From a virus: a stretch of 64,000 bases of DNA. The DNA lies in the IMG/VR virus record IMGVR_UViG_3300032286_000547, positions 1-64,000 of that record. One strand, 5' to 3'. The translations under genes and the position numbers were made by a program. Positions within the stretch are counted from its first letter, which is position 1, and each line of letters starts with the position of its first letter. The notes under the pieces were generated by a model. It was not told the DNA's origin. It ran no database searches and saw nothing but the letters and a program-made list of their open reading frames with translations. This document shows, in pieces, positions 2,310 to 62,260 of the stretch.

Positions 2310-3482
2310 ATGGCTGATTTTTCATTAACCACGGTATTCGTGGTTCCAGTAGGGCAAACTGCACTCCCTAGCTCTGGCTCAACACAAAACTTGACTGCAG
2401 GACAAGTTGGTTTCTTTAGAAACGATTATTCGGTAGCTACTGCTGCGAATATTGCTGCTGCTCCTTATTTTTACGTAGCACAAGGTAGAACAAACACTTA
2501 TTTACAAGGCTCTAAAAGATCTGACAAGATCAAAGGATGTCCTTCAGGATCTGGTTGTAACTCAAACGTAACAGAATGGTACAAAGTATCAGGATGTCCT
2601 ACAGCTGCAAACCAAATTACTGATGTAACTAATTTCACTGTACAATGTGGAGAAGTTATCACGTTAACTTTACGTGCTCACTCTTCTTATATTGATACAT
2701 TGTATTTTAATGGTTTCACTCGTTCGGTAACTATCCAAGCTCCATGTTGTAATTGTGATGACAACCCATGTGATGATGTAAGTGCTAACACTATCATCAA
2801 TGAGTTGATTTATCAATTAAACTTAAAAGCTCCAGGAAACAACCCTGACAACATTTCTTTCTCTACATTCTATACATTTGAAAATGTAGGTGGAACTACT
2901 TTACGTATTACAGGAAAACCATTAACTAAATATGGACAACCTTGTGATGTAGCTGCGTTCCCTTTTGAATATGACAGAATGTGGTTTAGAACATTTGTAT
3001 ACTCAGGTCCAGCTACTACTGCTGACTTTATCGTTGCAGATAACTGTAATCTTGTTGCTGATCCTATTATTAGACAACGTGCTTCTTATGCTACTGGTAC
3101 ATCTGCAGAAATTGCTCAATTAGAGAAAAATTTCTATAGCTACCAAGCTGGTTACTTGAAACATTTATATAGAATGAATGGATACAATGAGAACTTTGAG
3201 TCTTGGGTATCTGATGGTGTTACTTATGACACTTACTATATCAAATTCAACGAGTACAACAAATCTGAGTACCAATGGGGTGATTACATTATGGAAGACT
3301 CTACAGTGATTATCGCTGCTCCTAATGCTACAACAAGTGGTATTTCTGCTGCAATCACTACTGTATTAGAAGCTGGATTAGGTACTGTGGTAGATCAAGG
3401 TATTCCTTGTATTACAACTACATCTACTACAACTGGTGTCCCTGCATCTACAACAACTACTACTTCTACTCTTATCCCTTAA
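2310..3482 (+). CDS. crAss-like auxiliary capsid / major structural protein (gene-73-like) with C-terminal Thr-rich tail
   Basis: 390 aa with codon usage like the MCP fragment (TTC/AAC/ATC). GTSAEIAQLE...Y.A and YDTYYIKF motifs, C-terminal ITTTSTTTGVPASTTTTTSTLIP, and a long hairpin after the stop. Confidence 0.6.
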   Translation: MADFSLTTVFVVPVGQTALPSSGSTQNLTAGQVGFFRNDYSVATAANIAAAPYFYVAQGRTNTYLQGSKRSDKIKGCPSGSGCNSNVTEWYKVSGCPTAANQITDVTNFTVQCGEVITLTLRAHSSYIDTLYFNGFTRSVTIQAPCCNCDDNPCDDVSANTIINELIYQLNLKAPGNNPDNISFSTFYTFENVGGTTLRITGKPLTKYGQPCDVAAFPFEYDRMWFRTFVYSGPATTADFIVADNCNLVADPIIRQRASYATGTSAEIAQLEKNFYSYQAGYLKHLYRMNGYNENFESWVSDGVTYDTYYIKFNEYNKSEYQWGDYIMEDSTVIIAAPNATTSGISAAITTVLEAGLGTVVDQGIPCITTTSTTTGVPASTTTTTSTLIP

Positions 3483-4243: not shown

Positions 4244-5305
4244 ATGTTATCACCAAGACTAACAAATTGCCCAGAATGTGCTAACATTCCTTCTTTACTT
4301 AAAAAAATAGATTGCAAATTAGCAGAGCTTGGGAATAACTTGTACAACAATATTTCATATATGTTGAACAAACCTGTGCCTTCTAGTGACATACTTCAGC
4401 TGATAGGATATAGAAGAATACTTATGTATAAGTATTGTAATCCTAATTATGTGAATAAATACTCAGTAAATATGATTGCTAGTAGAGTGATACGTCTTAC
4501 ATTAGGATGTGTTAGTAGATGTAATGAACCAGAACGTTGTTTAGAGGAACCTTGTGATATTAAGATTGTATCAAATCCTACAACAACCAGTACAAGTACA
4601 CTTGCACCTATTACAACAACTACCAGTACAAGTTCAAGCAGTACTTCTACAACCAGTACTAGTACTACTGCAGTACCAACCACAACCACTACAAGTTCTA
4701 CTAGTACATCTACAACTAGTACAACTACAACAGTAGTACCAACTACTACAACTACTAGTTCTAGTTCTACAAGTACTTCTACAAGTACTTCTACATCAAC
4801 AACTACAAGCACTACAACTACTTTACCACCTACAACAACAACCACTAGTAGTAGTTCTTCAACATCTACAACCACTAGTACAACTAGTAGTTCTAGTTCA
4901 ACAACCACTACTACTACCACTGGAATTCCTTTCTACAATGTTCAAATACTTTTATCTCAAAAAGAAAATATAGGACAAAATGTAAAAATATGGTTTAGTT
5001 TTGGAGGAGCAAATTGGAATTTTTTTACAACAGGATCCCCTGGTACATACCCATTTTATAATTCATTTTCAGGATTATCATTTAGTTTAGGAACAAATAT
5101 ATTAATTGGATTAACAAATACTTCGGATACTGATATATCATATGGAGTTGGACAATCGTCAGGAGATTTTACATCTTTATGTGGACTTGTTTCACCATAT
5201 GTAATTAATAATATTTCAGCAAATACAACATTATATTTAAACTTAGATACAGATACTTCGGATTATATACCTTGTGCAACAACAACAACAACAACAACAG
5301 TTTAA
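4244..5305 (+). CDS. Putative structural protein with ~115-aa mucin-like Thr/Ser tract
   Basis: Helical Cys-containing N-domain, long T/S/P tract, beta-rich C-domain and terminal TTTTTTTV. Confidence 0.6.
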   Translation: MLSPRLTNCPECANIPSLLKKIDCKLAELGNNLYNNISYMLNKPVPSSDILQLIGYRRILMYKYCNPNYVNKYSVNMIASRVIRLTLGCVSRCNEPERCLEEPCDIKIVSNPTTTSTSTLAPITTTTSTSSSSTSTTSTSTTAVPTTTTTSSTSTSTTSTTTTVVPTTTTTSSSSTSTSTSTSTSTTTSTTTTLPPTTTTTSSSSSTSTTTSTTSSSSSTTTTTTTGIPFYNVQILLSQKENIGQNVKIWFSFGGANWNFFTTGSPGTYPFYNSFSGLSFSLGTNILIGLTNTSDTDISYGVGQSSGDFTSLCGLVSPYVINNISANTTLYLNLDTDTSDYIPCATTTTTTTV

Positions 5306-5325
5306 ACCTTTTAAAATAAAATAAT

Positions 5326-6426
5326 ATGTCCAATTGCTCAAATTGTTATAACGGATGTACAGAGATTGTCTCTGACAGATGTGTTAAATATACAGGGATA
5401 GATGTTCCTGTTCTAGGAATACAAACAGGTGATTCATTATCATTTGTAGAACAAGCATTGATTACATTCCTTACATCTGCAATAGATGGTACAGGAATCA
5501 AACCAATTATAAATGATACTATCATTTGTGATCTTGTAAGACAGTATTTACCAACATGTGGTGATCTTTCATTGAATGATATGTTAACAGCTATTATAAA
5601 AGCTGCTTGTGATCTTCAAGAACAAATAGATGCTATAGTTGCAGACATAGTAATTATTAATAATGATATAGATGTAATTGAGGCTGATTATACTGTAAGA
5701 TGTCTTGTAGATGGAACACCTTCTATAACACCTTCTTCAGGAACACATGCTGTTCTTCAAGCTACAATAGATACATTATGTGCATTAGCTTTAGATCTTA
5801 GTACAAATTATGTAAGTATAGCTAACATTGATACTTACATTGCAGCATATATTAGTGGTGCAAGTTCATTAGTAAGTACTAAAATGATTCCTTATGTAGC
5901 AGTTCCTTATTTCAATCCAGATCTTTCAAACTTTGATGGTACAGGAGCTGGTATAGGAAACTGGGCTAAGATTTATTTATGTAATGGAGCTAATCCAGGT
6001 GTACCTGATTTAAGAGGTAGAATGTTAGTTGGAGCAACTACAGGAATGAATGGTGGACCACTTAACTCTGCTGTTGATCCTGCTTTACCAGGTAATCCTC
6101 CTTATACATTAGGAACTACTACAGGGGTAAATCAAGTTACACTTGCACCTACACAAATTCCTAGTCACACACATACAGCTACCGCTACATCTACAGTTAC
6201 TGATCCTGGACATACACATAATTATACAACTCCTAATGCAGACGGTAGTGCTACAGGTAATGCAGATAATCATCCTGATGGACCTCTTGTTACTAGACAA
6301 ACAACATCAAGCACTACAGGAATAACTGTTGCTACTTCAGTAACTGTTAATCCATTTGGTGGAGGACTTCCTCATCAAAATAATCAACCTGCTTATGGTT
6401 GTTACTATATTATATATATACCTTAA
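5326..6426 (+). CDS. Tail-collar/short-fibre-type protein (tail collar domain, HxH repeats)
   Basis: LCNGAN..VPDLRGRMLVG, VTL..QIPSHTH, DPGHTH and GGGLPHQNNQP..YII are tail collar (MdpB-like) motifs; coiled coil upstream. Confidence 0.75.
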   Translation: MSNCSNCYNGCTEIVSDRCVKYTGIDVPVLGIQTGDSLSFVEQALITFLTSAIDGTGIKPIINDTIICDLVRQYLPTCGDLSLNDMLTAIIKAACDLQEQIDAIVADIVIINNDIDVIEADYTVRCLVDGTPSITPSSGTHAVLQATIDTLCALALDLSTNYVSIANIDTYIAAYISGASSLVSTKMIPYVAVPYFNPDLSNFDGTGAGIGNWAKIYLCNGANPGVPDLRGRMLVGATTGMNGGPLNSAVDPALPGNPPYTLGTTTGVNQVTLAPTQIPSHTHTATATSTVTDPGHTHNYTTPNADGSATGNADNHPDGPLVTRQTTSSTTGITVATSVTVNPFGGGLPHQNNQPAYGCYYIIYIP

Positions 6427-6438
6427 TAAATCATCAAG

Positions 6439-8745
6439 ATGGCATATCCTTTTTTACCAGTAAATCCTTGCTGTACAGACGTAGTTCTAAATACTCCTTG
6501 TGGATGTAGTTCTACAATTACCAATGGTGGTTGTAATAATAACGATCCATGTAGTACTCATTTAACTGCATCTAGCACTGTTGTTTATGATGGTCCTGCA
6601 CTACCATGTATAGTGGCTGAACCATGTGATACATTAAATGTAATCTTACAAAAGATAGATGAGATTATTTGTAATTTATTAACACAAATAAATTATTTAA
6701 ATAATCAAGTTACTAATATCACTAATCAAGTGATTACCATCAATGGTGATATAATTAATATATATAATATATTAGATGAGTGTTGTACTGCAACTACTAC
6801 CACTACATCTACAACAACATCAGCTCCTTGTGAAAGTTTCTCATTAGATAACACTGGAAATGAAGCAGTTGCTATCATTACTACTGATTGTACTACAGGA
6901 GAATTAGTTGCTACAGTCTTATTACCAGGAGTTACAAATATTTGTGTTGAAACAGATAGTCCTTTAACTGTTCCTGGAGATGTTATTGTTACACCAAATG
7001 GTCCTTGTGGTCCAACAACTACAACTACCACTACAACTATTCCTCCAAGCACCACAACCACTACAACAACTGTAGTATATGAATGTCAGTGTTTTACATT
7101 CTATAATGATGATGCTGTTACTCATGTGATAAATTATAAAGATTGTAATAATGTAAACGTTGGACCTTTGGATATTCTTCCACGTGAAACTATACAAGTT
7201 TGTGGAGGTTCTGGATCAGCTAGTGATCCTTTAGTTACAATTTCAGTAGGAGCTGATTGTATAGATGGGTCTTGTCCTACACCTAGTACAACTACCACCA
7301 CTACAACAATTGCTGAATGTACTTGTTATTATGCTGCTGTAACTATATCACAAGAATTATTAGATGTAACAGATAATGGTACAATTATAGTTAGTTTTAA
7401 TGATTGTGATGGAAATGCTCAATTAAATAATTATAGAAATGCAGGATCTTATTTATTAGGATGTGCAAACTTTATTCCAGGAATAGAAGTTACAGGATTA
7501 GTTGATGGAACAATAGTATTTCTTTCTGCTCCTTTTTCAATATATGAACAATGTTGTCCAGAATCTCCAACAACAAGTACTACTACTAGTACAAGTAGTA
7601 CAAGTAGTACAACAACTACTAGTTCTAGTTCAACAACAACCACAACCACAACTTGTCCTTGTACGAATCATGAACTAACAGGAGACTTAACAGGAGACAC
7701 TGAGTTTGTTTTTGTAGAATGTGGAAATACAGAATATACAAGTGTAACACTTGGAGGTTTTCCACAAGTGTATTGTATTGACAATAGTTATCGTGTTATT
7801 ATTATAGGAACTGGTGATGATTTTAATACAGGAGTTTGTTGTTCTATAACAACTACAACAACAACTACAGTTGTACCAACCACTACGACAACAACTACTA
7901 TTGCTCCTACAACAACTACTACCACAACAGTAAATCCAACAACTACAACTACAACAACATCTTATCCTTTTGATTGTTCATGTTTGAATGTTAATATATC
8001 TCAAACAGATTTAGATGATGCTACAGGAAACACTGGACCTGGTATACTTAATAATACAGTTTATTTAACAACTATAGAAGGTAGTGCATGTGATGGATCA
8101 GATGTAAATGCTGTTTACAGAGGTGTAACAACTGATGTTTTTTGTATTGACTTATCAGTAGCATTAGGAAATATAGAATTATTCTATTATAAAAATAATG
8201 TACCTGTATACTTCCCTAGTATAGATAGTACATACACTATTTTATATTCAGAATGTTTAGAAAGAGGTGACTGTGAAATAACAACTACGACCACCACTAC
8301 TATAGCACCAACCACTACTACCACTACTACAGTAGCACCTAGTACTACAACTACAACAACTGGTATACCTACAACAACAACTACAACAACTGCAGTTCCA
8401 ACAACTACAACAACTACTACAATATTTGATAGACGTTGTACATGTTTCCATGTTACTATAGATCAAGCAGATATAGATGATGCTACAGGTAATGCAGATC
8501 CTGTAAAGGATGGTAAATTGTACTTACAAACTTCTAAAGGTTCAGGTTGTGATGGTGCTCCTGATATATCTGCAGTATACACAACATTTGGTTCAGATGG
8601 TTTCTGTATAACAACATCACTTGTTAGTTCAATACAGTTATATTATTATAAAAATGATGTTCCAATTTACTATCCAGCTACAGCTAGTTCATACAATGTA
8701 TTGTATACTGCTTGTTCAGTGAATGGAGAATGTTTACCTGTATAA
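6439..8745 (+). CDS. Fibre-like protein: Cys-rich modules linked by poly-Thr tracts
   Basis: N-terminal VYDGPALPC module and coiled coil, repeated Cys modules separated by T6-T10 runs, and two ~100-aa repeats (ISQ.D.DDATGN...FCI...YYKN.VP). Confidence 0.65.
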   Translation: MAYPFLPVNPCCTDVVLNTPCGCSSTITNGGCNNNDPCSTHLTASSTVVYDGPALPCIVAEPCDTLNVILQKIDEIICNLLTQINYLNNQVTNITNQVITINGDIINIYNILDECCTATTTTTSTTTSAPCESFSLDNTGNEAVAIITTDCTTGELVATVLLPGVTNICVETDSPLTVPGDVIVTPNGPCGPTTTTTTTTIPPSTTTTTTTVVYECQCFTFYNDDAVTHVINYKDCNNVNVGPLDILPRETIQVCGGSGSASDPLVTISVGADCIDGSCPTPSTTTTTTTIAECTCYYAAVTISQELLDVTDNGTIIVSFNDCDGNAQLNNYRNAGSYLLGCANFIPGIEVTGLVDGTIVFLSAPFSIYEQCCPESPTTSTTTSTSSTSSTTTTSSSSTTTTTTTCPCTNHELTGDLTGDTEFVFVECGNTEYTSVTLGGFPQVYCIDNSYRVIIIGTGDDFNTGVCCSITTTTTTTVVPTTTTTTTIAPTTTTTTTVNPTTTTTTTSYPFDCSCLNVNISQTDLDDATGNTGPGILNNTVYLTTIEGSACDGSDVNAVYRGVTTDVFCIDLSVALGNIELFYYKNNVPVYFPSIDSTYTILYSECLERGDCEITTTTTTTIAPTTTTTTTVAPSTTTTTTGIPTTTTTTTAVPTTTTTTTIFDRRCTCFHVTIDQADIDDATGNADPVKDGKLYLQTSKGSGCDGAPDISAVYTTFGSDGFCITTSLVSSIQLYYYKNDVPIYYPATASSYNVLYTACSVNGECLPV

Positions 8746-8765
8746 ATATTAAATAAAATTATATA

Positions 8766-9455
8766 ATGGCTAATTGCTCAAAAATAAATAATACAACAAT
8801 AATAGGAACGAGTGCTGTCACATATGATGGCACTCCACTTCCTTGTACAGATGTAAATACATGTGATGGGTTAAATACCATACTTGCTAAGTTTGATGCT
8901 ATTATATGTGATGTCAAATCTAATGTAGATACACTTACAGAAGAGATAATAGATATTACAGAGAATGTAATGCTTATTACAGAAGACATAATTAATATCC
9001 AAAATCAGTTAGAGATATGTTGTCCTAATTGTGATTTCACTGGAACTGCTGATCAACTATTAGATTGTACTTTTACTGGAACTGCTAGTCAACTTCCAGA
9101 TTCTACAACTACTACAACTAGTTCTAGTACATCTACTAGTACTTCCACTAGTACATCTACATCCACTAGTACAAGTACATCTACATCTACATCCACTACT
9201 ACTACTAGTTCAAGTAGTACAACAACTAGTACCACTACATTAGCTCCAGGAGATTTATGTTACAATGTTGAAATTTATCCTCCTATATTTAGTCCAGGTA
9301 CATTTCACGATGTAACATATACAGATTGTTTAGATATTGTTCAATCAGTAAGTGTTCCTGATGGTGGAAGTATGGTAACTATATGCTCAAAAGGAATTAT
9401 ATCAGATAATGGAAATGGTATAACTTTTCCTTTACTAACATTATGTACATCTTAA
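8766..9455 (+). CDS. Fibre-like protein with S/T tract; N-terminus paralogous to 6439
   Basis: VTYDGTPLPC..CDGLNTIL.K.D.IIC, coiled coil, (ST)n tract and one Cys module. Confidence 0.6.
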   Translation: MANCSKINNTTIIGTSAVTYDGTPLPCTDVNTCDGLNTILAKFDAIICDVKSNVDTLTEEIIDITENVMLITEDIINIQNQLEICCPNCDFTGTADQLLDCTFTGTASQLPDSTTTTTSSSTSTSTSTSTSTSTSTSTSTSTSTTTTSSSSTTTSTTTLAPGDLCYNVEIYPPIFSPGTFHDVTYTDCLDIVQSVSVPDGGSMVTICSKGIISDNGNGITFPLLTLCTS

Positions 9456-9491
9456 TTAAAAATCAACTATAATAAATTAATATATAAAAAT

Positions 9492-10589
9492 ATGATAGCA
9501 TTAATAACATTAGTTATACCACCTGGCGGAGATGCTGGTCCTTTTAATTTGTATTCAAATACAGATGGATATACAACACCATTTGCAACAAACATATCTG
9601 CAGCCGCTTTAACAGCTGGTTACACATCAACTGTTGTACCAAATGGAACAACTATAATTAGAGTGGTATCTACAGGAGTGTGTACAAATTATATTGATAT
9701 ACCAATCAATTTAATTACAACCACTACAACCACTAGTAGTTCTAGTACAAGTACAACAACTAGTACTACTACCACTGCTGTTCCTACTACCACTACTACA
9801 AGTAGTTCAACAAGTACATCTACTAGCACGAGTACATCTACATCTACAAGTACATCTACTTCTACATCAACTAGTACTACAACAGTTGCACCCACTACAA
9901 CCACTACTACTACAAGACTAATTGAATGTATAAGTTATTCAGCAACTATAAGTACTGGAATTGGAAATGTTAGTTGGACTGAATGTAATGGAGATCCTGG
10001 ATTTGGTGAAGTTACTGTAAGTGAACCTATTAGCTTCTGTGCACAAGAAGATACACCAATAAGTTCAACTCCAAATATTACTATAACCGATAATGGATCT
10101 TGTACAAGTCCTGAAGAAGGATGTTACACTATAACATTTAATCCTGATAGTGAATGTCCAGGTGATCCAGGTCATGTTACTGTATCATATACAGAATGTA
10201 ATGGAGATCAAGTTATAGGTGAAGTAATTAATACAGGAGCAGGTGCTACTAGATGTGCATTAGTTGGAGGTGCTGGTTTACAACCTGCATATGTTTGTGG
10301 AACAGGAACTATTTCACTTGGTGATCCATGTATACAATTAGGTCTTATTTCAGCATTTCCTGATCTAACTGATGCTTGTCCATTAGATATGTTAAATAAT
10401 TGTTGGATAAGTGGTATAGGAGAACCTAATGCAGGAGATGTTATATACACAGATGCTGCAATGACAACACCATTCTCAGGTGATGGAGACTTCTATCATT
10501 TTACTTTACAATCATCTACAATTACATATAGTGCTAGAGTTAATGCTTTTGGAGTAATTCAAGCTGCAGACTATACTATATGTCCTTAA
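9492..10589 (+). CDS. Putative virion decoration protein with mucin-like tract
   Basis: N-terminal GPFNLYSN module, ~65-aa T/S tract, two W/YTECNG modules. Confidence 0.6.
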   Translation: MIALITLVIPPGGDAGPFNLYSNTDGYTTPFATNISAAALTAGYTSTVVPNGTTIIRVVSTGVCTNYIDIPINLITTTTTTSSSSTSTTTSTTTTAVPTTTTTSSSTSTSTSTSTSTSTSTSTSTSTSTTTVAPTTTTTTTRLIECISYSATISTGIGNVSWTECNGDPGFGEVTVSEPISFCAQEDTPISSTPNITITDNGSCTSPEEGCYTITFNPDSECPGDPGHVTVSYTECNGDQVIGEVINTGAGATRCALVGGAGLQPAYVCGTGTISLGDPCIQLGLISAFPDLTDACPLDMLNNCWISGIGEPNAGDVIYTDAAMTTPFSGDGDFYHFTLQSSTITYSARVNAFGVIQAADYTICP

Positions 10590-10614
10590 TAATAAAAACT
10601 AAAATCAATAACAT

Positions 10615-11097
10615 ATGACAGTATTAATAACATTAACAGTTGCTGGGGCTGATTCAGGCCCCTTCAACCTGTATTCAAATATAGATGGATTTACATCAGC
10701 ATTTGAAACAGGAGTCTCTAAAGCTGCTTTATTAGCAGGATATTCTTCTGCATTAGTTCCTAATTTTACAACAGTGATTAGAGTGTTATCAACAGGAGAT
10801 TGTACTAACTATATAGACATAACATTAGATGCACCAATAACCACCACTACAAGTTCTAGTAGCAGTAGTACAACAACCACTACAACTGGAATTCCTTGTA
10901 TCTCATATGAGATGATAGGTGTTTTGGATGGTCCTGGATGTGTAGGATTTGTAAACTACTCATACACTGATTGTTCAGGAGTTTTCCAACTAGGAAGTTT
11001 CTCAGTTTCTAGTTCAGAAACTGTATGTGGACAAAGTCTTCCTACAATAACTTGTGGATCTGCAACAATAAATAACTTAGGCACATGCCTTCCATAA
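10615..11097 (+). CDS. Short paralog of 9492 (GPFNLYSN module, T/S linker, one Cys module)
   Basis: N-terminal ~70 aa align with 9492 (GPFNLYSN.DG.T..F.T..S.AAL.AGY.S..VPN.TT.IRV.STG.CTNYIDI). Confidence 0.65.
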   Translation: MTVLITLTVAGADSGPFNLYSNIDGFTSAFETGVSKAALLAGYSSALVPNFTTVIRVLSTGDCTNYIDITLDAPITTTTSSSSSSTTTTTTGIPCISYEMIGVLDGPGCVGFVNYSYTDCSGVFQLGSFSVSSSETVCGQSLPTITCGSATINNLGTCLP

Positions 11098-14689: not shown

Positions 14690-17600
14690 ATGGCTGAAGA
14701 AAAACAACAAGGAAACATAAGACAAGAGTACAATAATGCTACTGTAGGACTGAATATGGATCAATCTGTTAATCAGATTAAGCCAGGTACTCTTACATAT
14801 GCATTAAATGCTGCCTTGGAAAACTTTGATGCTAGTTCTGTTAACTATCAGAATGAGCAAGGTAATGAGTTTTGTGTAAGTTTCCCACAAGGATTTACAT
14901 TAATAGGTAATCATTTTATTGCAGAGCAAAGTAAACATATATTCTTTATAACTAATCCTAATACAGGAGATTGTCAGATTGGATATATGGACAACAATGA
15001 TTGTATCTACCGTATATTAGTAAATGGTAGATGCCTTAACTTTAATATAAATAATCCAATACAAAAAACAGTACATAAGATTACAAACTGTACAACAGAA
15101 ATATATTGGACAGATGGATTAAATCCAAGAAGATATTTAGATATTAATAATGTTCCTTATATATTATCACCTCAATCAGAATTGTGTGACCCTGTATACA
15201 CAGATCAATTAGATTGTAATCAATTAAAGATACAACCTAATTTCAGTATTCCATTTTTAAATGTTGTAGATGTAATTAGTGGCGGTGAACTAAAAGCAGG
15301 AACTGTACAGTTTGCTATACAATATTGTGATGCTGCAGGTAATGCATTCACATCATATTATTCTGTTACCAATCCTACACCTATTGCTGATCCATTTATC
15401 ACTACAGTTAATTATGATTACACTGTGGGTAAATCAGTTGTAGTTGATATTACAGGATTAGATACTACAGGACAATATCAATATTATAACTTAGCAGTGA
15501 TTACCACTGTAAATGCTATCACTTCTGTAGAATTAGTTGGTACATATTTTATTGAAAATTCATACGATCAAGTTACATACACTGGTCAAAACGTAGATAA
15601 CATTCGTTTAGTTATTGCAGACATATTTGAAAAATATCCTTACTATGATATTGCACAAGACTTAACAGCTGTACAAGATGTTCTTGTATGGGATAATCTT
15701 ACATCTATAGACAGACTTAACTATCAATCTATTGCTACTAAAATAAAACTTAATTGGCAAACATATAGAATACCAAATAATGAAAACTATGCTGATGAAT
15801 TAAATGCTACAAACTTACGTGGATATTTACGTGATGAGGTGTATGCATTTGAAATTGTATTCTTATTAAAGAATGGAAAGCAAACAGATGGTTTTCACAT
15901 CCCTGGAAGAGAAATAGGTTATAATGATTTACAATATCCAAATGTACTAGATACGGATCCAGATTTTATTGGAGAACCAGAACCAGGTACAAACTATAGT
16001 CCTTATTGGAAGATATATAATACAGCCACTGTAATAGGACCTGCAACAGGAGATCCTATTGGTAATGCTACACCATATCAATATGGTGAAATGGCTTATT
16101 GGGAATCTACAGAAGAGTATCCTTGTAATGAAGATTTGTGGGGTGAACTTGCTGGTAAACGTATTAGACATCATAAGTTTCCAGATGTTCTTGTAAGTCC
16201 TATATTTGAGAATCCTGTATATGTATATTCAGGAAATCAAGTGGTTCCTGTAATGCAAAATAATGCAGTGTATCCAATTGGTGTAAGAGTAGATGTTGGA
16301 CAAATTAGTACATTGATTGCACAATCATCATTAACTGCAGAACAAAAGGATGATATTGTTGCATTCAAAATAGTTAGAGGAGATAGAGGAACAAACAAAT
16401 CTATTGTAGCTAAAGGGATACTTCGTAACGTTGGATCTTATGAAAGACAAAATCAAACTCTTTATTATCCAAACTATCCATACAATGACCTTAATTCAGA
16501 TCCTTTCTTAAATTCATTTAACAATGCATTCAATCAAATATCTAGTCCATGGTTAGTAATAAACAGTAGTGGTACTGATGTTACAGTTGAATATAAAGAT
16601 CCTAACACAAATCAAACTGGAACAAGAACAGTACCTCCTAACACAACGATTGAGTTTTGTTCAACAAGTAGACCTACAGTAAGAGAAGGTGTAGCTACAG
16701 TTGGTCCTGGAAACTTTGATTCATTTTTCTTAAGTGGTTGTCATGGAACTAAAGGATATCGTGCATTCTGGGCTACTCCATTTACTTCTGATAATACTGT
16801 TCTAAATCAACAAGAGGAGTATATGGACTCTAATAGTAATATATTTGGAGGTGGTTGTAGTACAGGTAGAGCTATTGTAAATGTTGGTGGAAGTGTAGGT
16901 GATGATTGTGATAACCCTTGGTGGAATCCATTTAAGTGTGATCCACGTGCTGATATTGAAGATATTGAATATCAAGACATTGGTGTTGTAAATTTTAATA
17001 AGAGTAGAAGATCTAAACTTAACTGTAAAGGACAAACACCAGTTCCTGCATTTACAGGTGGAACATTAAACTATAGACAAATATTTAATTCTCCTGAAAC
17101 ATCATTTGGACAACCATTCTTAGGTAATGTATTAAAACTTGAGAATGTAATGTTTGGTGCTGGTAGAGCGCATTTTGTTCCAGTGGAAAGTAATGCTAAA
17201 TATAAACTTCTTACAAAAGAAGCTCAATATGATGCATTAGAATCATCAGAAAGACTTGGTGCTATTACAAGTCCATTTAATGCTGGAGCAATGTTTGCTG
17301 CTTACCAATCATATTTAACTATTTATGTAAATGGTATTACTAGAAAGAACTATGCATACTCATTCAATTCAATAGCTAGCTATGACTACTTTGGAAACAT
17401 AGATAATAGTCTTGGTATCAAACAAAGAACAATTGATTTTGCTCGTTATTTAATTCCAGGTGTTCAATCTGTTGGAGAACCAGGTGGTATAAATGTAAAC
17501 AACTTTGAAAGAGAAAGTTCTGTATATATCAAAACTATAGAAGAAAGAGATGTTGCTATCCCTGTTACACCTTTAGAATTTCCTAGCAAGACACCAAGTC

Positions 17601-20600
17601 TTGTTTCAGGAGGAACTTCTATAATTACAGATAAATCTAGATTTACTATAGGAAGTAGTGGTGTATGTAATTCTCCAGGTAAAGAACAAAACATCAATGT
17701 AGTGTCTTATTATGGTTCTATGAAAAATATATTTGTAAACCAATGGGGGCAGATATATTCATACAACACTATTGATACAGGATTCCAAAGAAAAATTAAT
17801 TCAGGAAATACAGATATTGCTACTGTGTTTGGTGGAGATACATTTATCTCTAGATTCACATTCAAAACAAAACTTCCATTCTTTATAGATAATAGAGTTA
17901 ATGCTCCTGATGATTCAGACATATTTTATGATGAAATAGGTAATGTAGCTTATCCAAAATTCTGGCACTCTGCTAGATCTATTCTTTCAGACTATACAGT
18001 ACAAGGTCAGGTTATGTCAAATATTATTTCATATAAAGCAAACTATCTTGATTGTCCTAATTATGATCCTGTAACATTTGCAATCAATGCACCTTCTGGT
18101 TCAAATAGAACATTCTATGACGGATACTTCTATTTGTTTGCATATGGTATTCCTAACTTCTATTGTGAGACTTCTTACAACTTAGACCTTAGACAAGCAT
18201 TCAACAATAGAGAAGGTGACTTCTGGCCACACGTATCTACAGGTATTCCTGATGCTTGGGTTCAAGAAGATTACGTATCTATTGCAAATGATAATACGTA
18301 TACTTATAATGTAACATTCTCTAAACAAAATAAAGAGAACACGTTTACTCATTTACCACCTGATTGGGTTGAGCAATTCTGTTATACAAACTATCCATTT
18401 AGAGCAATCTACTCAGACTCTCAAAATACAGATGCTGATAACAGAGTGAATAGTTGGTTAACATATAGAGCATTATCATATTTTGATTTCCCTCAAAACT
18501 ATGGAGGACTTATATCATTAGATGGTATTCAGAATAAAGCTGTACTTGCTAGATTTGAGAATAAGAGTTTATTGTATAACAACTTATTAACTATTGATAC
18601 AAGTAATCCACAAGCTGCGTATGTAGGTAATCCTAATATGTTTAGAGGTGCTCCTCCTATTGACTTTGCTGAAACAGATCTTGGATATGTAGGAAGTCAG
18701 AATAAATTCTTATTAAAGATTCCTCAAGGACAAGTAACAGTAGATGCTAAAAGAGGTCAGATATTTTTAATCTCTGGTACACAAGCTGTAGATATTTCTG
18801 CATTTGGTAGTGGTATGAATAGATTCTTTACAGACCACTTAGCATTTGAAATACTTAGATATTTCCCTGATGTAAATATAGATAACCATTTTACAGGAGT
18901 TGGACTTCATGGTGTATATGATAGTAAGTTTGATAGAGTTATATTTACTAAACTAGATTATATTCCTATTGATAAAGATGTTAGATATGATTCTACTTTA
19001 CAGCAGTTTTATGTAGAAGATGTAATCAGTGGAATTACATTTAGAACACAGGTGTATTTAACAGACCCTGATTACTTCTGTAATAAGTCTTGGACTATAT
19101 CATTTAATTTCAATACTAAAAGCTGGGTGAGTTTCCATACATATATTCCTAATTTCTATATAGCAGAAAATAATTTCTTCTATTCAGGACTTAATGGATG
19201 TTGTGATGATGTTAGTTTCTCTGCATTAGTTGGAAACTTAATACCTCCTACTAGTACAACTACTAGTACAACACAAGCTCCTCCATCAACCACAACTACA
19301 ACTACACTAGGTTTAGATTGTCAGTTAGGAGGAGTGGCAGTTACATTATTATGTAACTTAGCAGGTACTGGTATAATAACTGTACCTTCTCCAAGTACTA
19401 CAACAACTACTACAGCATGTGCTAGACCTGCTGGATTAAATCTTTATGGATTCTATACTGGATATCAAGTTGGATCTAATCCTGCAGTTATTTCTACAGG
19501 AAGTCTTGTAGATGCTTGTGCTGCAATTTCATTTACAAGTTCTACTATTACAACACTATCTGGTTTCTCAGTGATGGCTGAAAATCTTTTACTTGGTGCT
19601 TTTGTTTATTTAGGAACAGGTACTGATTGTACACTAGTTCCTGATGGATGGTATTTTACTCCTGAAGGTCAAACAAGTGGATTTGCATACCAATTAGTTG
19701 ATGGAGAGGTTGTACAAATTTCATACTGTAATTCTAATAACACTACAACATCAACTACTACATTAGTTCCAAACGTTCCAGAATGTTGTGGAATAATATT
19801 TAGTGAAGGAGATGATATAAGTTTACTTAATAATGATGGATCCTTTACTCCATTATCAGTACCAGGATATGTAAACTCTTATGGAATAGAATTATCTGTA
19901 GATAAATTATGGTCTATTGATACTCAAATTGTTGAATGGGATGTTACATTAAGTCCATTCAGTGCAGTGTTTAATAGAAACATAACACTTCCTGTAGGAT
20001 TTACAACAGGTAGTGGAATATCAGCAATCAATGATACATTATTAATTGCTGTAGATTCATCAACAAGTCCTCAAGAAGTAGTTGAATTAGATATCACTAC
20101 TACCACTGCAACTATGAGTACTGTGTTTACATTGCAAGCAAATAGAGTGGCGTTAGGTAATTTCTTATATACCACTTCTAATAAACTGTTAATACTTAAT
20201 CAAGATTCAGTTACATCAACATACTATCTTACTCAGTATGATTATGCAACATATGCAATTGATGTTGATACAGATCTTGGATCAATTGTACCTGTTTCTA
20301 TATTCTCATGTTCATGTGTTACATATGTAATAGATGATTTAGGAGATGTTTATTCTGTACAATCTGCTCCTAATTATGAATTAACTATTGTAAATAACTT
20401 TAACGTAATTCCTAATTCATCTGCGCAATCAAATGCATGTATAATATGTTCATTAACAGATAATGGAAATCTTCTTACAACAACCACTACAACTATAGCT
20501 GCTTTATATTTTTGCTATACTGTTCAAGTGAATAACACTTGTGATGTAAGTTGGATTGATGTTACAGGAACAACACAAACTCAAACTGTATCAAACAATA

Positions 20601-20782
20601 TAATCTATGTATGTGCACAAGAAAATTCAGTTACATCAGTTTGTAATCCAGGTAGTTCATTGTTAATTACAGGTGGAACAAGTTCTTGCACAAGCAATCT
20701 TGATTGTCAACCTACAACAACTAGTACAACAACAACGATTCCTCCAACAACAACTAGTACAACAACGCTAACTCCTCCTTAA
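14690..20782 (+). CDS. Tail stabilization / muzzle protein, N-terminal part, with ~520-aa Thr/Cys-rich C-terminal extension
   Basis: GLNMD, YALNA, IYWTDGLNPRR, GYLRDEVYAFEIV, FGGDTFISRF, YGGL..L, VDAKRG, HGVYDSKFDRV and WTISF...WVSFHTYIP are crAss-like muzzle motifs. Confidence 0.8.
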   Translation: MAEEKQQGNIRQEYNNATVGLNMDQSVNQIKPGTLTYALNAALENFDASSVNYQNEQGNEFCVSFPQGFTLIGNHFIAEQSKHIFFITNPNTGDCQIGYMDNNDCIYRILVNGRCLNFNINNPIQKTVHKITNCTTEIYWTDGLNPRRYLDINNVPYILSPQSELCDPVYTDQLDCNQLKIQPNFSIPFLNVVDVISGGELKAGTVQFAIQYCDAAGNAFTSYYSVTNPTPIADPFITTVNYDYTVGKSVVVDITGLDTTGQYQYYNLAVITTVNAITSVELVGTYFIENSYDQVTYTGQNVDNIRLVIADIFEKYPYYDIAQDLTAVQDVLVWDNLTSIDRLNYQSIATKIKLNWQTYRIPNNENYADELNATNLRGYLRDEVYAFEIVFLLKNGKQTDGFHIPGREIGYNDLQYPNVLDTDPDFIGEPEPGTNYSPYWKIYNTATVIGPATGDPIGNATPYQYGEMAYWESTEEYPCNEDLWGELAGKRIRHHKFPDVLVSPIFENPVYVYSGNQVVPVMQNNAVYPIGVRVDVGQISTLIAQSSLTAEQKDDIVAFKIVRGDRGTNKSIVAKGILRNVGSYERQNQTLYYPNYPYNDLNSDPFLNSFNNAFNQISSPWLVINSSGTDVTVEYKDPNTNQTGTRTVPPNTTIEFCSTSRPTVREGVATVGPGNFDSFFLSGCHGTKGYRAFWATPFTSDNTVLNQQEEYMDSNSNIFGGGCSTGRAIVNVGGSVGDDCDNPWWNPFKCDPRADIEDIEYQDIGVVNFNKSRRSKLNCKGQTPVPAFTGGTLNYRQIFNSPETSFGQPFLGNVLKLENVMFGAGRAHFVPVESNAKYKLLTKEAQYDALESSERLGAITSPFNAGAMFAAYQSYLTIYVNGITRKNYAYSFNSIASYDYFGNIDNSLGIKQRTIDFARYLIPGVQSVGEPGGINVNNFERESSVYIKTIEERDVAIPVTPLEFPSKTPSLVSGGTSIITDKSRFTIGSSGVCNSPGKEQNINVVSYYGSMKNIFVNQWGQIYSYNTIDTGFQRKINSGNTDIATVFGGDTFISRFTFKTKLPFFIDNRVNAPDDSDIFYDEIGNVAYPKFWHSARSILSDYTVQGQVMSNIISYKANYLDCPNYDPVTFAINAPSGSNRTFYDGYFYLFAYGIPNFYCETSYNLDLRQAFNNREGDFWPHVSTGIPDAWVQEDYVSIANDNTYTYNVTFSKQNKENTFTHLPPDWVEQFCYTNYPFRAIYSDSQNTDADNRVNSWLTYRALSYFDFPQNYGGLISLDGIQNKAVLARFENKSLLYNNLLTIDTSNPQAAYVGNPNMFRGAPPIDFAETDLGYVGSQNKFLLKIPQGQVTVDAKRGQIFLISGTQAVDISAFGSGMNRFFTDHLAFEILRYFPDVNIDNHFTGVGLHGVYDSKFDRVIFTKLDYIPIDKDVRYDSTLQQFYVEDVISGITFRTQVYLTDPDYFCNKSWTISFNFNTKSWVSFHTYIPNFYIAENNFFYSGLNGCCDDVSFSALVGNLIPPTSTTTSTTQAPPSTTTTTTLGLDCQLGGVAVTLLCNLAGTGIITVPSPSTTTTTTACARPAGLNLYGFYTGYQVGSNPAVISTGSLVDACAAISFTSSTITTLSGFSVMAENLLLGAFVYLGTGTDCTLVPDGWYFTPEGQTSGFAYQLVDGEVVQISYCNSNNTTTSTTTLVPNVPECCGIIFSEGDDISLLNNDGSFTPLSVPGYVNSYGIELSVDKLWSIDTQIVEWDVTLSPFSAVFNRNITLPVGFTTGSGISAINDTLLIAVDSSTSPQEVVELDITTTTATMSTVFTLQANRVALGNFLYTTSNKLLILNQDSVTSTYYLTQYDYATYAIDVDTDLGSIVPVSIFSCSCVTYVIDDLGDVYSVQSAPNYELTIVNNFNVIPNSSAQSNACIICSLTDNGNLLTTTTTTIAALYFCYTVQVNNTCDVSWIDVTGTTQTQTVSNNIIYVCAQENSVTSVCNPGSSLLITGGTSSCTSNLDCQPTTTSTTTTIPPTTTSTTTLTPP

Positions 20783-58635: not shown

Positions 58636-59649
58636 ATGGCTATACCATCTAGACAGATAGGCTGGGGAACAGAAGAAAATCTGTTATGGCAAATCTCTAA
58701 GCAATTAGAGAGATTAACACAGGTGACAGGAAATAGTGTAAGTGGATCTCAAACACTTGCACAAACACTTGTTACTGGAAACAATACAGGTGGGAATGAT
58801 ATACTATTAAATAGTACTGATGCAATACAGTTAGAAAATAATTCATCACTTAGAAAAGGAACTTATGATTTTGGTCAAGGTGGTGGTGTTTCACGTATAT
58901 GTGGTGTAGACTATGAAGATATGTGGCAAGGTGGAATTAGACACGTATTTGATTCCAATGGATTTATAAGAAATTCAACTAACTGCTTTAATATTATACC
59001 TAATTCAAGTTTTGATGATACTTTAAGATTTAAAATTGGTTCATTTTGGACTTTGGATGATGGTACTACTTATGAATGTACTAATGCAACAACAGGAGCT
59101 GCTGTTTGGCAATTATATTCTACACCTCCTAAGTATAAGGTGTTCACAGCTTTATTAACACAGAGTGGAGGAAATAATCCTGACACTATACCAGGCAACG
59201 GTGGAACGCTTGATGCTGGATATACTTATTTAATAATAGACAATCCAGATAATTATGATTTAACATTATATGGTGCACCAAATAACTTACCTGGAACATA
59301 TTTTATTTGTGCCAATTCTATTCTTAATCTTCCTTATACTAACAGTCTACAAATAGGAGTTAATTATGGTGCTCCAGTAGCAACTGTATTAGAGAACACT
59401 ATTGGGAATGTTTGGTTTACTTATGATGGTGTTGGTAACTATTCAGTTAAATCTAGTAATTTATTTTTAGAAAATAAAACAACACTAAGTATTAATCTAA
59501 TGGGTGATGATGTAGGTACTGGTTATATATGTTTAGGATATATTAATACTACAGAATCATTAGGTATTACAACAGGTACAGAAATAGGCGGCTCACAAGA
59601 CAATGTTTTAACATGGAAAACACCAATAGAAATAAGAGTTTATAATTAA
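58636..59649 (+). CDS. Putative virion decoration protein (MAIPSRQIGW module)
   Basis: N-terminus shared with 59660; C-domain YKVFTALLTQSG...P.ATVLENTIG...PIEIRVYN. Confidence 0.55.
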   Translation: MAIPSRQIGWGTEENLLWQISKQLERLTQVTGNSVSGSQTLAQTLVTGNNTGGNDILLNSTDAIQLENNSSLRKGTYDFGQGGGVSRICGVDYEDMWQGGIRHVFDSNGFIRNSTNCFNIIPNSSFDDTLRFKIGSFWTLDDGTTYECTNATTGAAVWQLYSTPPKYKVFTALLTQSGGNNPDTIPGNGGTLDAGYTYLIIDNPDNYDLTLYGAPNNLPGTYFICANSILNLPYTNSLQIGVNYGAPVATVLENTIGNVWFTYDGVGNYSVKSSNLFLENKTTLSINLMGDDVGTGYICLGYINTTESLGITTGTEIGGSQDNVLTWKTPIEIRVYN

Positions 59650-59659
59650 TAAATAAAAC

Positions 59660-60442
59660 ATGGCAATACCTAGTAGACAAATAGGATGGAGTGGAAGAGC
59701 TAACTTACTTTGGCAGATATCTAAACAATTAGAATATCTAACATGTGTAGCAGCTGGTGGATGTACAACTACTACATCTACTACCACTATTGCTCCTACC
59801 ACCACCACAACAACTACAATTTGTGTAGACTTTATTAATAGTATTGTTATTTCTGGTGGTTCATACACTGCTGCTAATGGAACTTATACAAGAGATACTC
59901 CTTCAGGATCTTTTACATTAACAGGTGGAGGTGGTGCTATATTCTTTGGTGGAGATGCTTGGTATATTTTTAATGCTACAATTGGAAATGTTGCAATAAA
60001 TACATCTACACTAGGAACTGGAACATGGGAACCTTTTGCTCCTGGAAATTCATCAGGAATTACTGCAGAGTATTTTTATTATACTTGTCCAACCACTACA
60101 ACCACAACTAGTAGTAGTTCTTCAACAACTTCTACTACTAGCACTACTACAACTGTAGCTCCAACTACTACTACAACAACTACAGTTATATATTCATTTA
60201 ATGTTACGCAATGTTGTGGAGGAACTGGTATTACAGTATATTCAGCTTCACCATCAATAACAGTAGGTGCATATTTATATACAAACTCAGGACTAACTGT
60301 TCCGTTTGTTAATGAACAAGGTGACGGTGCTCCTAACAGAATTGGTTTTGAGAATACTTGTGATGTTTCTTTTAGTGACGCATTTTTTACATATAATACA
60401 GGATACGTTTATACCATTAATGGTGGCGGTGGTTGCGACTAA
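59660..60442 (+). CDS. Putative decoration protein with MAIPSRQIGW module and two Thr tracts
   Basis: Paralogous N-terminus; T-rich linkers between small beta domains. Confidence 0.6.
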   Translation: MAIPSRQIGWSGRANLLWQISKQLEYLTCVAAGGCTTTTSTTTIAPTTTTTTTICVDFINSIVISGGSYTAANGTYTRDTPSGSFTLTGGGGAIFFGGDAWYIFNATIGNVAINTSTLGTGTWEPFAPGNSSGITAEYFYYTCPTTTTTTSSSSSTTSTTSTTTTVAPTTTTTTTVIYSFNVTQCCGGTGITVYSASPSITVGAYLYTNSGLTVPFVNEQGDGAPNRIGFENTCDVSFSDAFFTYNTGYVYTINGGGGCD

Positions 60443-60484: not shown

Positions 60485-61501
60485 ATGAAAGATTTAAAAT
60501 TTGTACAAGCTTGCCCAAGCGATATTTATTATACATGGCAAGTGAACCTTTGGATGGAAAGCCTAAAAGAAATAGGACACTCTGACAAAGCAATCAATCT
60601 TATATTCACTCCTAAAGGAAGAGAGAATAGAGACAAATGGAAACAAATAGAAGACCTATATCCAGAAGCTGAGTTTCATTACTACGAGGATGAGGATGAT
60701 TTAAATCGATTAATTGGAATCTATATTCCTGTACTTAGACCATATGTTCTTTGGAAACATTTCAAGAAGCATCCAGAGCTAAGTGATAAAGCAATCTTCT
60801 ATTGTGACTCTGACATTCTATTCATGAAAGATTTCAATGTAGATCAGTTCTTAGAAGATGAAGTGTGTTACTTATCAGATACAAATAGCTACATCAATGC
60901 TAAATATTTTGATAGTAAGGTGAATCAAGTGTTACCAGAGAAACTGGAAGAATATAAAGGTAGAGACATCCTTGCAGAGATTGCAAGTGTTGTAGGAATA
61001 AGCAGAGAAATAGCTGAGGCTAACAATGATCATTCAGGAGGAGCACAATATCTATTAAAGAATGTAGATGGTGACTTCTGGAGTAAGGTGATGAATGATT
61101 GTATTCTTATTAGAACCTATTTACAAACAGTGAATAGAGAATTCTTTAAAGATGAAAATGCTGGATACCAAAGTTGGTGTGCTGATATGTGGGCTGTTCT
61201 TTGGAACCTATGGTTTAGAAACCAAGAAACAAAGGTGGTACCTGAAATGGCATTTGCATGGGCTACAGATCCTATATCAAAGCTTGATACACATACAATC
61301 TTTCATAATGCAGGAATAGTTTCTGAAACAGGAAATGGTTACCCAGCCTTTTACAAAGGCAAATATCACATGGGTACTGATCCAACAAAAGATCCTAACC
61401 TAGATATGATTCTTAATGACGAACAATCAAAAAAATATTGTACTTGGTTCTATGCAACTAAACTGAATGAAATTAAAAACAAATATAACCTAAACTATTA
61501 A
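60485..61501 (+). CDS. GT-A glycosyltransferase resembling HPAT/SERGT (GT95/GT96) peptide O-glycosyltransferases
   Basis: YYTWQ...ESL, Y.P.LRPY.L..HF, YCDSDILF (DxD), GGAQYL, W.KV..D, WCADMWA and IFH in the same order as in that family. Confidence 0.7.
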   Translation: MKDLKFVQACPSDIYYTWQVNLWMESLKEIGHSDKAINLIFTPKGRENRDKWKQIEDLYPEAEFHYYEDEDDLNRLIGIYIPVLRPYVLWKHFKKHPELSDKAIFYCDSDILFMKDFNVDQFLEDEVCYLSDTNSYINAKYFDSKVNQVLPEKLEEYKGRDILAEIASVVGISREIAEANNDHSGGAQYLLKNVDGDFWSKVMNDCILIRTYLQTVNREFFKDENAGYQSWCADMWAVLWNLWFRNQETKVVPEMAFAWATDPISKLDTHTIFHNAGIVSETGNGYPAFYKGKYHMGTDPTKDPNLDMILNDEQSKKYCTWFYATKLNEIKNKYNLNY

Positions 61502-61517
61502 CCATAAATTTTAAACA

Positions 61518-61781
61518 ATGGGAAGCATTAATACAAGACCTTTAAAGGCTTATGTTAGATTCGATGGATCTGGCAGAATAGTTGCAGGAAGTTTAGTTCT
61601 GAGAAAGAACAAACCTAAAGTTGGTAAATGGAAAGAGATTCCAGCATATGAGTGCTGTAATCCTACAACCACTACTACCACTACAGCTGCACCAACAACA
61701 ACAACAAGTACAACTGTAGCTCCAACTACCACAACCACAACAACTGCGAGAGCAACAACAACAACTACAACAACAAGATAA
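61518..61781 (+). CDS. Small protein: VRFDGSGRIV module plus pure poly-Thr tail
   Basis: 87 aa, of which the last ~38 are almost only Thr with A/P/V spacers. Confidence 0.65.
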   Translation: MGSINTRPLKAYVRFDGSGRIVAGSLVLRKNKPKVGKWKEIPAYECCNPTTTTTTTAAPTTTTSTTVAPTTTTTTTARATTTTTTTR

Positions 61782-61783
61782 TC

Positions 61784-62260
61784 ATGGCTAGAAGTAATAA
61801 CAATAATAAGCTTAAAGCTTTTGTACGTTTTGATGGTTCAGGACGTATTGTACCAAGTAGTTTAATTGTACAAGCATTTAAACCGAAGGTAGGTAACTAT
61901 CAAGAAATAGATGCTAAAGAGTGTTGTAATTACACAACAACTACAACAACAACTTTAGCACCAACAACAACCACTAGTACTACGGTAGCCCCTACTACAA
62001 CTACAACTACTACTGTAGCTTTAATTCCACTTACTTTTACAGTTTGTTGTGGAGAAGCTGAAGAAACTTTATATGCAACATCAAGTCCAGTAGTGCCTGG
62101 TGTTTATTTATATGAAAACGCGGCTGGTACAATTCCTGCTGTTTTAAGCGGAAATGTTGTGATCGGTGAAATCGATTGTCCTTTTGAAGAAAATATAGGA
62201 ATATCTACAAATGAATCTGGATTAGTTTTGAGTATTACAAACCCTATTAACTGTGCTTAA
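61784..62260 (+). CDS. Paralog of 61518 with Thr tract and extra C-terminal domain
   Basis: LKAFVRFDGSGRIV..SL....KPKVG...EI.A.ECCN; C-domain similar to the end of 59660 (CCG.....Y..S....G.YLY.N). Confidence 0.65.
   Translation: MARSNNNNKLKAFVRFDGSGRIVPSSLIVQAFKPKVGNYQEIDAKECCNYTTTTTTTLAPTTTTSTTVAPTTTTTTTVALIPLTFTVCCGEAEETLYATSSPVVPGVYLYENAAGTIPAVLSGNVVIGEIDCPFEENIGISTNESGLVLSITNPINCA

Follow-up and report, generated by a model that had tools for sequence, protein, structure and literature searches.

What is the function of a gene that lies among threonine-rich genes in the genome of an uncultured virus? This question is raised by the open reading frame (ORF) 60485-61501 in the first 64 kb of IMG/VR record IMGVR_UViG_3300032286_000547, a 110,147-bp viral record with direct terminal repeats; this whole stretch of 64,000 nucleotides is hereafter the window. 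The first-pass annotation described the product as a phage homolog of the plant and algal extensin O-glycosyltransferases (HPAT/SERGT) that would initiate glycosylation of the poly-threonine (poly-Thr) proteins encoded on both sides. Here we present evidence that the ORF almost certainly encodes a glycosyltransferase, and we consider it fairly probable that this enzyme is a threonine/serine (Thr/Ser) O-glycosyltransferase of poly-Thr virion proteins, most likely adding the first sugar.

The glycosyltransferase gene and Thr-rich virion tails

All motifs listed in the first-pass annotation are present in the 338-aa ORF, in the order given: from N to C terminus, YYTWQ (residues 15-19), IYIPVLRPYVLWKHF (79-93), YCDSDILF (106-113), GGAQYL (185-190), WCADMWAVL (231-239) and IFH (272-274). 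The protein matches phrog_4417 (E 5.2e-55, residues 5-321 on profile positions 2-287 of 293), an unnamed phage family whose function is not annotated in PHROGs. The family is large, with 2,713 relatives collected in a word-indexed search and 778 clusters at 50% identity in an exhaustive one. Residues Y80, D108, D110, Y136, F257, H274 and K291 are invariant in an alignment of 59 sequences (30-49% identity), in which conservation of G185, G186 and Q188 is at least 90%. This level is also reached, in a more distantly related second set, by the W and Q of WQ and the W, M and W of CADMW, and D108, D110 and H274 are invariant there too. Judging from this conservation, the motifs are the core of the family rather than chance strings. 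The gene itself is real, because full-length ORFs with 67-95% identity are present in 80 related viral contigs, mostly genomes of 100-120 kb; the single-protein search of viral contigs that found them returned the window's own lineage only.

The AlphaFold2 model of the protein (predicted local distance difference test, pLDDT, 96.8; predicted template modeling score, pTM, 0.94) is a single globular domain from residue 4, with a GT-A fold and a DxD motif, and its closest folds in the PDB are of the retaining type, namely GT8, GT24 and GT6. D108 and D110 align with the DxD of both GT8 and the members of the Pfam family HPAT (PF23452), and H274 aligns with a nearly invariant His of PF23452 members. 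As predictions go, it is secure that the protein is a glycosyltransferase using nucleotide sugars, with its metal site formed by the DxD and the His. Other members of the family are fused to GT2, GT6, DXD-sugar-binding, GT7-type or methyltransferase domains, a pattern to be expected if the enzyme carries out a single step in glycan synthesis. A Pfam search with the window protein yielded no family even at E 1, NCBIfam has no family for it, and PDB sequence and profile searches gave chance matches only. No hydrophobic N-terminal segment or membrane anchor is apparent by eye in the protein, which starts with MKDLKFVQACPSD.

The gene co-occurs with Thr-rich tails across phage lineages. Using tblastn, the family was detected in 77 phage records, all with less than 60% identity, from phages of Enterococcus, Lactobacillus, Staphylococcus, Lactococcus, Clostridium, Arcanobacterium and Chryseobacterium. 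Nearby structural proteins carry Thr-rich tracts in 11 of the 11 gene-bearing lineages, usually as C-terminal tails on capsid and tail-tube proteins, and in at least six lineages the gene lies within the late structural operon, directly after a capsid or tail-tube gene. In Enterococcus phage phiFL1A, the gene (gp51) directly follows that of gp50, the major tail protein, whose C-terminus is a run of about 22 Thr/Ser, and the C-terminal end of the capsid-position protein gp45 consists of three Thr runs. In Lactococcus phage 1706, the gene follows orf13, encoding a 'major structural protein' that ends in T10-HHD, and the capsid/protease protein orf10 ends in T9-HHD. Clostridium phage phiCTP1 carries Thr tails on gp18, gp11 and gp4, with the gene located after gp18. 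Both the capsid-position and the tail-tube proteins of Lacticaseibacillus phage R3.3 end in Thr runs followed by SHA, and the gene comes after the capsid-position gene. The pattern extends to the Lactobacillus myophages Semele (Thr runs in gp075 and gp074, gene after gp075) and SAC12B (TTV(K/A)P repeats in gp126, directly before the gene), to Chryseobacterium phage MA9V-3, where a Thr-tract protein is encoded immediately upstream, and to the Staphylococcus-type phage F1, with three Thr-run proteins just upstream. The gene follows an untagged capsid-position gene in two phages: Lactococcus phage bIL285, where the tail-tube-position protein orf50 ends in T9-RHD, and Enterococcus phage nattely, with Thr runs in two structural proteins.

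The Thr tails within one phage end alike, with HHD in 1706, RHD in bIL285 and SHA twice in R3.3, and a QG ending (QG, SQG) recurs on the tails of phiFL1A and phiCTP1. From these common endings, it looks as if the whole tag is copied or recognized as a unit.

Gain and loss of the tails follow the gene in three matched contrasts. First, R3.3 belongs to the genus Coetzeevirus, and the whole records of its congeners Bassarid, phiJL-1 and ATCC8014, as well as that of the near-identical AS1, do not contain the gene. The capsid proteins of these four phages end at ..IFTA(S/T)PKA, the point where the R3.3 protein, from a phage with the gene, runs on into the Thr tail, and there is no Thr run in their tail-tube proteins. 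Second, three Streptococcus Javan phages, with tail-tube proteins 55-60% identical to that of phiFL1A, lack both the gene and the tail. Third, the same is the case for three phages with tail-tube proteins 46-56% identical to that of bIL285. Altogether, 10 of the 10 gene-less records are free of Thr tails.

These associations suggest that the enzyme quite probably acts on Thr/Ser residues of Thr-rich virion tracts, in the cytoplasm, before or during assembly. In the model that we propose, a soluble, cytoplasmic, metal-dependent GT-A enzyme would take a host-made nucleotide sugar and transfer the sugar to Thr (and Ser) hydroxyls within poly-Thr tracts of virion proteins. In the window phage, the products of the genes flanking the transferase gene and the other Thr-tract proteins of the structural module would serve as acceptors; in the small phages of Gram-positive bacteria, this part would fall to the poly-Thr C-termini of the capsid and tail-tube subunits. 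Four further proteins of the window phage discussed below (a 988-aa protein, a GT2, a GT11 and a methyltransferase) would lengthen or modify the glycan, or work on other acceptors, and the outcome would be a glycan brush on the particle. A retaining mechanism can be guessed because the fold neighbors are GT8-like, and a common host uridine diphosphate (UDP)-sugar donor because small genomes carry the gene alone, and again because of the fold neighbors. Shielding, colloidal behavior and adhesion are candidate purposes of such a brush.

Ancestry, first sugar and acceptor

Several observations weigh against the enzyme being the initiating transferase of poly-Thr virion proteins. The ten gene-less controls amount to only three independent contrasts, and were weighed as such. 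A Thr-run ORF lies immediately upstream of the gene in only 29 of 77 close relatives, and many Thr tracts of the window sit between domains, like linkers. Most of the homologs on Bacteroidota chromosomes (Sphingobacterium, Pedobacter, Chitinophaga and related bacteria) have no Thr-run ORF nearby, so that poly-Thr is not the only acceptor type of the family. A second transferase of the window, the Aah/TibC-type domain of the 988-aa protein, passes an equivalog cut-off and could be the initiating enzyme here. As for descent, searches with the PF23452 model gave no match in the 110-kb genome or in five homolog-bearing phage records, and the N-terminal half of the family resembles GT8 (score 43.9) almost as well as it does HPAT-like proteins (45.2-50.2). 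Three alternatives draw on these observations.

The alternative that survives best concerns ancestry. The family could be a divergent branch of the GT8-like clan of retaining GT-A enzymes, with its likeness to HPAT and SGT1 reduced to shared GT-A features; we regard this as unlikely, although it is the alternative to be taken most seriously. By Pfam's rule (a curated gathering threshold of 23.9 bits), the window protein, which has no PF23452 match, is not a member of that family, and a weak match was obtained for one of 59 family members (E 0.013). All top PDB folds belong to GT8, GT24 or GT6, and a Pfam-verified GT8 alignment matches the family profile (69%, score 43.9), albeit only over the N-terminal 114 columns. 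The homology to HPAT/SERGT stated in the first-pass annotation thus falls below the Pfam threshold, but a remote relationship is supported at the level of profiles, folds and language-model neighbors. When the phage-family profile (A1) was compared, using hhalign, with an alignment of 23 bacterial PF23452 proteins (A4), the match extended over the full length (85.3%, E 5.9e-6, score 50.2, 264 columns), with six motifs in register, WQ; Y..(L/N)R....(H/W)(F/L); DxD; W.(A/S)DM; His; and K..Y. The null comparisons, with reversed and with 30 column-shuffled alignments, scored no more than 22.8 against the 50.2, and an independent sub-branch of the family (A3) repeated the match to A4 with a score of 46.5. 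Both halves of the protein, split after the DxD, match A4 separately. The C-terminal, acceptor-side half scores 31.3 (nulls, at most 19.9), whereas against GT8 this half scores 14.0, the null level. A GT-A control, the N-terminal domain of the phage's own 988-aa protein, could be aligned only in the region surrounding the DxD (33.7, 85 columns).

Fold comparison in the opposite direction gave the same answer. When a bacterial HPAT-like protein was modeled with AlphaFold (pLDDT 94.6), the top viral match was an uncultured-phage member of the family (E 3.9e-9), two orders of magnitude ahead of the next match (4e-7), and this same phage protein is the best match of the window model. Among the 30 nearest named Atlas clusters (language-model neighbors), 21 carry PF23452. 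Sequence searches from the bacterial side, with a single PF23452 protein and with the A4 profile (best 120), had only bacterial proteins among the matches listed.

The structure comparison proposed in the first-pass annotation returned GT8, GT24 and GT6 as the best PDB folds, and no GT95 or GT96 structure seems to exist for comparison. According to a 2021 survey, GT96 had no representative crystal structure and was predicted to have a different fold, and the fold of GT95, predicted to be GT-A-like, likewise had to be predicted. Neither family can, it appears, show up in the PDB ranking, so the place of GT8 at its head does not refute the plant link. The alignments support a remote but specific relationship of the phage family to Pfam HPAT; the link was tested via the bacterial members of PF23452, and its last step, to the plant enzymes, rests on Pfam's model. 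We take the family to be a distinct relative of HPAT, nearer to HPAT than to GT8, with both in one broad GT-A group. A protein from a Microthrix-type genome, whose relatives make up the A4 alignment, passes PF23452 with 31.5 bits against the 23.9 cut-off; a phage-type family member is encoded 4 kb away from it, on the opposite strand of the same contig (about 14156-19686, L141/L146).

The second alternative, which we consider improbable, concerns the order of sugar addition. The first sugar would be added by the Aah/TibC-type or the N-terminal GT-A domain of the 988-aa protein, and the enzyme encoded at 60485 would add a later one. The 988-aa protein matches Glycos_transf_1 and Glyco_transf_9 in Pfam, and its residues 663-986 match NCBIfam TIGR04414 with 258 bits against the equivalog cut-off of 200. 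Further genes of this kind are found beyond the window, at genome positions 66789-68768 on the minus strand (locus L154 3290-5269), where a Methyltransf_24 gene (a weak match, 23.6 bits, below cut-off), a GT2 gene (54 bits) and a GT11 gene (fucosyltransferase-type, 97 bits) are adjacent. The genome thus totals six glycosyltransferase domains and a methyltransferase, which implies several steps to be shared out, and the glycan-extending enzymes Skp1 AgtA and GlyE are among the nearest solved folds of the window protein. The methyltransferase family found at 66789-68768 is also fused to relatives of the studied enzyme (P0137, P0177).

An extending role fits the smaller phages poorly. The phiFL1A genes of at least 150 aa have either an ordinary annotated function or no Pfam glycosyltransferase domain, and gp51 is the only recognizable glycosyltransferase in this phage; because a phage with Thr tails makes do with this sole recognizable transferase, a self-sufficient initiating enzyme is favored. 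Across lineages, it is the 60485-type gene, and no other transferase, that tracks the tails, and the nearest sequence family, HPAT, is peptide-directed. GT95 and GT96 have been described as related, initiating enzymes that act on peptides. For the peptidyl-Thr/Ser activity claimed in the first-pass annotation, comparative genomics supports poly-Thr virion acceptors, and the lone transferase of phiFL1A agrees with initiation; in the window phage, the word 'initiating' stays an inference because a second protein-directed transferase, of the Aah/TibC type, is present. Taken together, addition of the first sugar by the 60485 enzyme is slightly favored. The 988-aa protein is probably a partner or a rival initiating enzyme, and a reasonable inference is that the acceptors are split, with poly-Thr tracts for the 60485 enzyme and other Ser/Thr-rich proteins for the Aah/TibC-type domain.

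The third alternative, more doubtful still, places the acceptor outside the virion proteins: the enzyme would act on host envelope glycans (teichoic acid or lipopolysaccharide), on phage DNA or on a secreted peptide, and the Thr tracts would be unglycosylated linkers. According to a review, DNA glucosylation and serotype conversion are the roles for which phage transferases are chiefly known, and the bacteriocin-like clusters of Bacteroidota contain homologs without Thr-run proteins. The linker-like tracts of the window would agree with this view, but the terminal tails of 6-20 Thr in other phages have nothing after them and hence are not linkers. In at least six lineages, the gene lies in a late structural operon, right behind a capsid or tail-tube gene; this location, and the gain and loss of tails with the gene in the three matched contrasts, argue for virion acceptors, and the protein has no long hydrophobic stretch, unlike the Gtr-type conversion enzymes. 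DNA hypermodification and serotype conversion were set aside in view of where the gene lies, its tie to the tails and the absence of membrane segments from the protein.

The locus and its neighborhood

The first-pass annotation placed the gene between Thr-tract proteins of the same operon. The flanking genes at 59660, 61518 and 61784 do encode such proteins (Table 1), and the 'sandwich' is an understatement: the 110-kb genome contains eleven real ORFs with Thr/Ser runs, all in the structural half (starts at 2310, 4244, 5326, 6439, 8766, 9492, 10615, 14690, 59660, 61518 and 61784), with none in the 46 kb beyond the window. Tracts were defined as stretches of five or more T/S, four or more of them T; a stricter rule, 8 T/S in a window of 10, misses both downstream neighbors (61518 and 61784), and the rule adopted misses the TTV(K/A)P repeats of SAC12B gp126. 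The Thr codons within the tracts are a mixture of ACA, ACT and ACC, so it is at the protein level that the tracts are kept.

The genes at 59660, 60485, 61518 and 61784 are all on the plus strand, with intergenic gaps of 42, 16 and 2 nt, and no plus-strand terminator-like site was found between 58636 and 62260. The promoter and terminator scan did not rise above shuffled sequences; co-transcription of the 60485 gene with its poly-Thr neighbors is plausible. Within the window's lineage, at least one Thr-run ORF flanks the gene in 77 of the 80 relatives, and in 53 of 78 such an ORF starts within 200 nt downstream.

Table 1. Coordinates of the features discussed (positions in the window, except for the Bacteroidota loci)
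Feature	Coordinates	Strand	Remarks
Structural-module protein, 390 aa, with C-terminal Thr/Ser tail	2310..3482	+	Found in the run search
Structural-module genes with Thr/Ser tracts	4244..11097	+	4244-5305, 5326-6426 (tail-fibre-like), 6439-8745, 8766-9455, 9492-10589, 10615-11097
Protein of 2030 aa, Thr/Ser runs in the C-terminal quarter and at the extreme end	14690..20782	+	
Triple glycosyltransferase, 988 aa	53582..56548	-	N-terminal GT-A (DSD), GT4-type and C-terminal Aah/TibC-type O-heptosyltransferase domains
Protein of 337 aa, without Thr tract	58636..59649	+	First ~27 residues in common with the 59660 protein
Upstream poly-Thr protein, 260 aa, candidate acceptor	59660..60442	+	Four T/S runs, two Thr tracts, Cys-bearing C-terminal domain
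Glycosyltransferase gene, 338 aa, ATG to stop	60485..61501	+	GT-A fold, phrog_4417, remote relative of Pfam HPAT (PF23452)
Codons for D108-S109-D110, DxD motif, putative metal and nucleoside diphosphate (NDP)-sugar binding site	60806..60814	+	D108 and D110 invariant
Codon for H274, putative third metal ligand as in GT8-type enzymes	61304..61306	+	Invariant
Downstream protein, 87 aa, candidate acceptor	61518..61781	+	Small basic module followed only by a ~38-aa Thr-rich tail; four runs
Downstream paralog, 158 aa, candidate acceptor	61784..62260	+	N-terminal module and Thr tract as in 61518, C-terminal domain added; three runs
Bacteroidota loci of interest	L101 2707-8136; L113 4029-4322; L127 1311-1574; L103 538-726		C39 exporters, ORFs with double-glycine leaders

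The adjacent genes 58636/59660 and 61518/61784 form two pairs of paralogs with a common N-terminal module (about 27 and 48 residues, respectively), after which the members of both pairs diverge, with or without a Thr tract and with or without a C-terminal domain. The 9492 and 10615 proteins likewise have an N-terminal module in common. For the 390-aa protein encoded at 2310, identification as the capsid protein was attempted: no PHROG, PDB or phage match was obtained, and no match supports a capsid or other identity. Very large ORFs follow in series on the plus strand between 14690 and 47914, encoding proteins of 2030, 1569, 940, 4273 and 1669 aa. Among the ordinary neighbors of the locus is an endolysin-type Peptidase_M15_4 protein (57982-58410); a DUF5856 protein, labeled as a starvation-inducible transcriptional regulator in PHROGs, is encoded at 62280-62693.

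Bacterial relatives and known systems

A search of prokaryotic genomes with a 12-sequence alignment identified 53 loci that encode relatives of the family. Some of these are phage-like contigs with Thr-tract neighbors. On Bacteroidota chromosomes, a C39-peptidase ABC exporter is encoded within 6 kb of 22 of about 35 homologs, and several loci contain small ORFs with classic double-glycine leaders and Cys/Thr-rich cores (Table 1). This suggests that the Bacteroidota loci represent an undescribed class of glycosylated bacteriocin-like peptides with a non-GT2 transferase. Among the listed bacterial PF23452 proteins (P0347-P0400), about a third are fused to PqqD (PF05402), which is a peptide-recognition element of the pathways for ribosomally synthesized and post-translationally modified peptides (RiPPs); these fusions suggest peptide glycosylation in RiPP-type pathways. 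Both contexts, C39 exporters and PqqD, point to polypeptide acceptors for the wider group.

A search of a literature library found no paper on the family, on a poly-Thr tag or on a link between HPAT and bacteriophages, and no report of virion-protein glycans for any carrier of the family. Tentatively, the poly-Thr tag and its HPAT-like writer may constitute a portable module that has spread horizontally among phages infecting Bacillota, Bacteroidota and aquatic bacteria. The writer would be part of an old superfamily of polypeptide O-glycosyltransferases, prokaryotic and viral, with bacteriocin/RiPP-like enzymes among its members and GT95/GT96 as an offshoot. Under such a scheme, an appended Thr run would suffice to give any virion protein a glycan brush. 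If the family acts as suggested, virion glycosylation would be widespread (778 sequence clusters): carriers span phages of Enterococcus, Staphylococcus, Lactococcus, Lactobacillus and Clostridium as well as the abundant aquatic 110-kb lineage, and would be predictable from sequence by the rule of the gene plus Thr tails. Several of the carriers, such as phiFL1A, bIL285, 1706, R3.3 and Semele, can be cultivated as common laboratory phages. Such a role would bear on phage therapy (antibody recognition and clearance), on the biology of dairy phages and on the sticking of marine phages or their resistance to it. It would also supply a short, genetically encodable glycosylation tag together with one soluble enzyme, and would set the origin of the extensin-glycosylating plant enzymes against a prokaryotic and viral background.

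Among known systems, GT8 enzymes (glycogenin, LgtC, GlyE) share about 10% identity with the window protein, which has no PF01501 (GT8) match and does not keep the GT8 signature H..G..KPW: it reads HNAG, with the invariant Lys 17 residues later. The motif order of the phage family matches that of bacterial PF23452 members over the full length. The plant and algal HPAT1-3 (GT95, PF23452) and SGT1 (GT96) put the first sugars on consecutive hydroxy amino acids of extensin-type proteins and peptides. However, the plant HPAT and SGT1 enzymes are type II Golgi proteins, whereas the phage protein has no membrane anchor visible by eye, and the acceptor would be Thr for the phage enzyme but is hydroxyproline (Hyp) or Ser for those of plants; we know of no peptidyl-Hyp tracts of the plant kind in bacteria or phages.

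The glycocin-type transferases SunS and GccA are GT2 enzymes in bacteriocin clusters. The Bacteroidota homologs resemble these systems in that they adjoin C39-peptidase ABC exporters and double-glycine leader peptides, but the transferase family is not GT2 and the phage genes have neither exporter nor leader peptide. To our knowledge, no glycocin-type product has been described from the Bacteroidota clusters of this family.

Measured phage virion glycosylation is known to us only for mycobacteriophages. There, as cited in PMC12619734, glycans were measured at the C-termini of the capsid and tail-tube subunits (Freeman et al. 2023, Cell Host Microbe). The present phages are alike in combining a phage-encoded transferase with tails at the C-termini of capsid-position and tail-tube proteins, with the glycans predicted here rather than measured. 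The window phage has the same pairing of transferase genes, several in number, with Ser/Thr-rich proteins, in the form of its eleven Thr/Ser-run ORFs. The systems differ in their hosts, which are here Bacillota, Bacteroidota and those of an aquatic 110-kb lineage, and in the tag, which is here near-pure poly-Thr.

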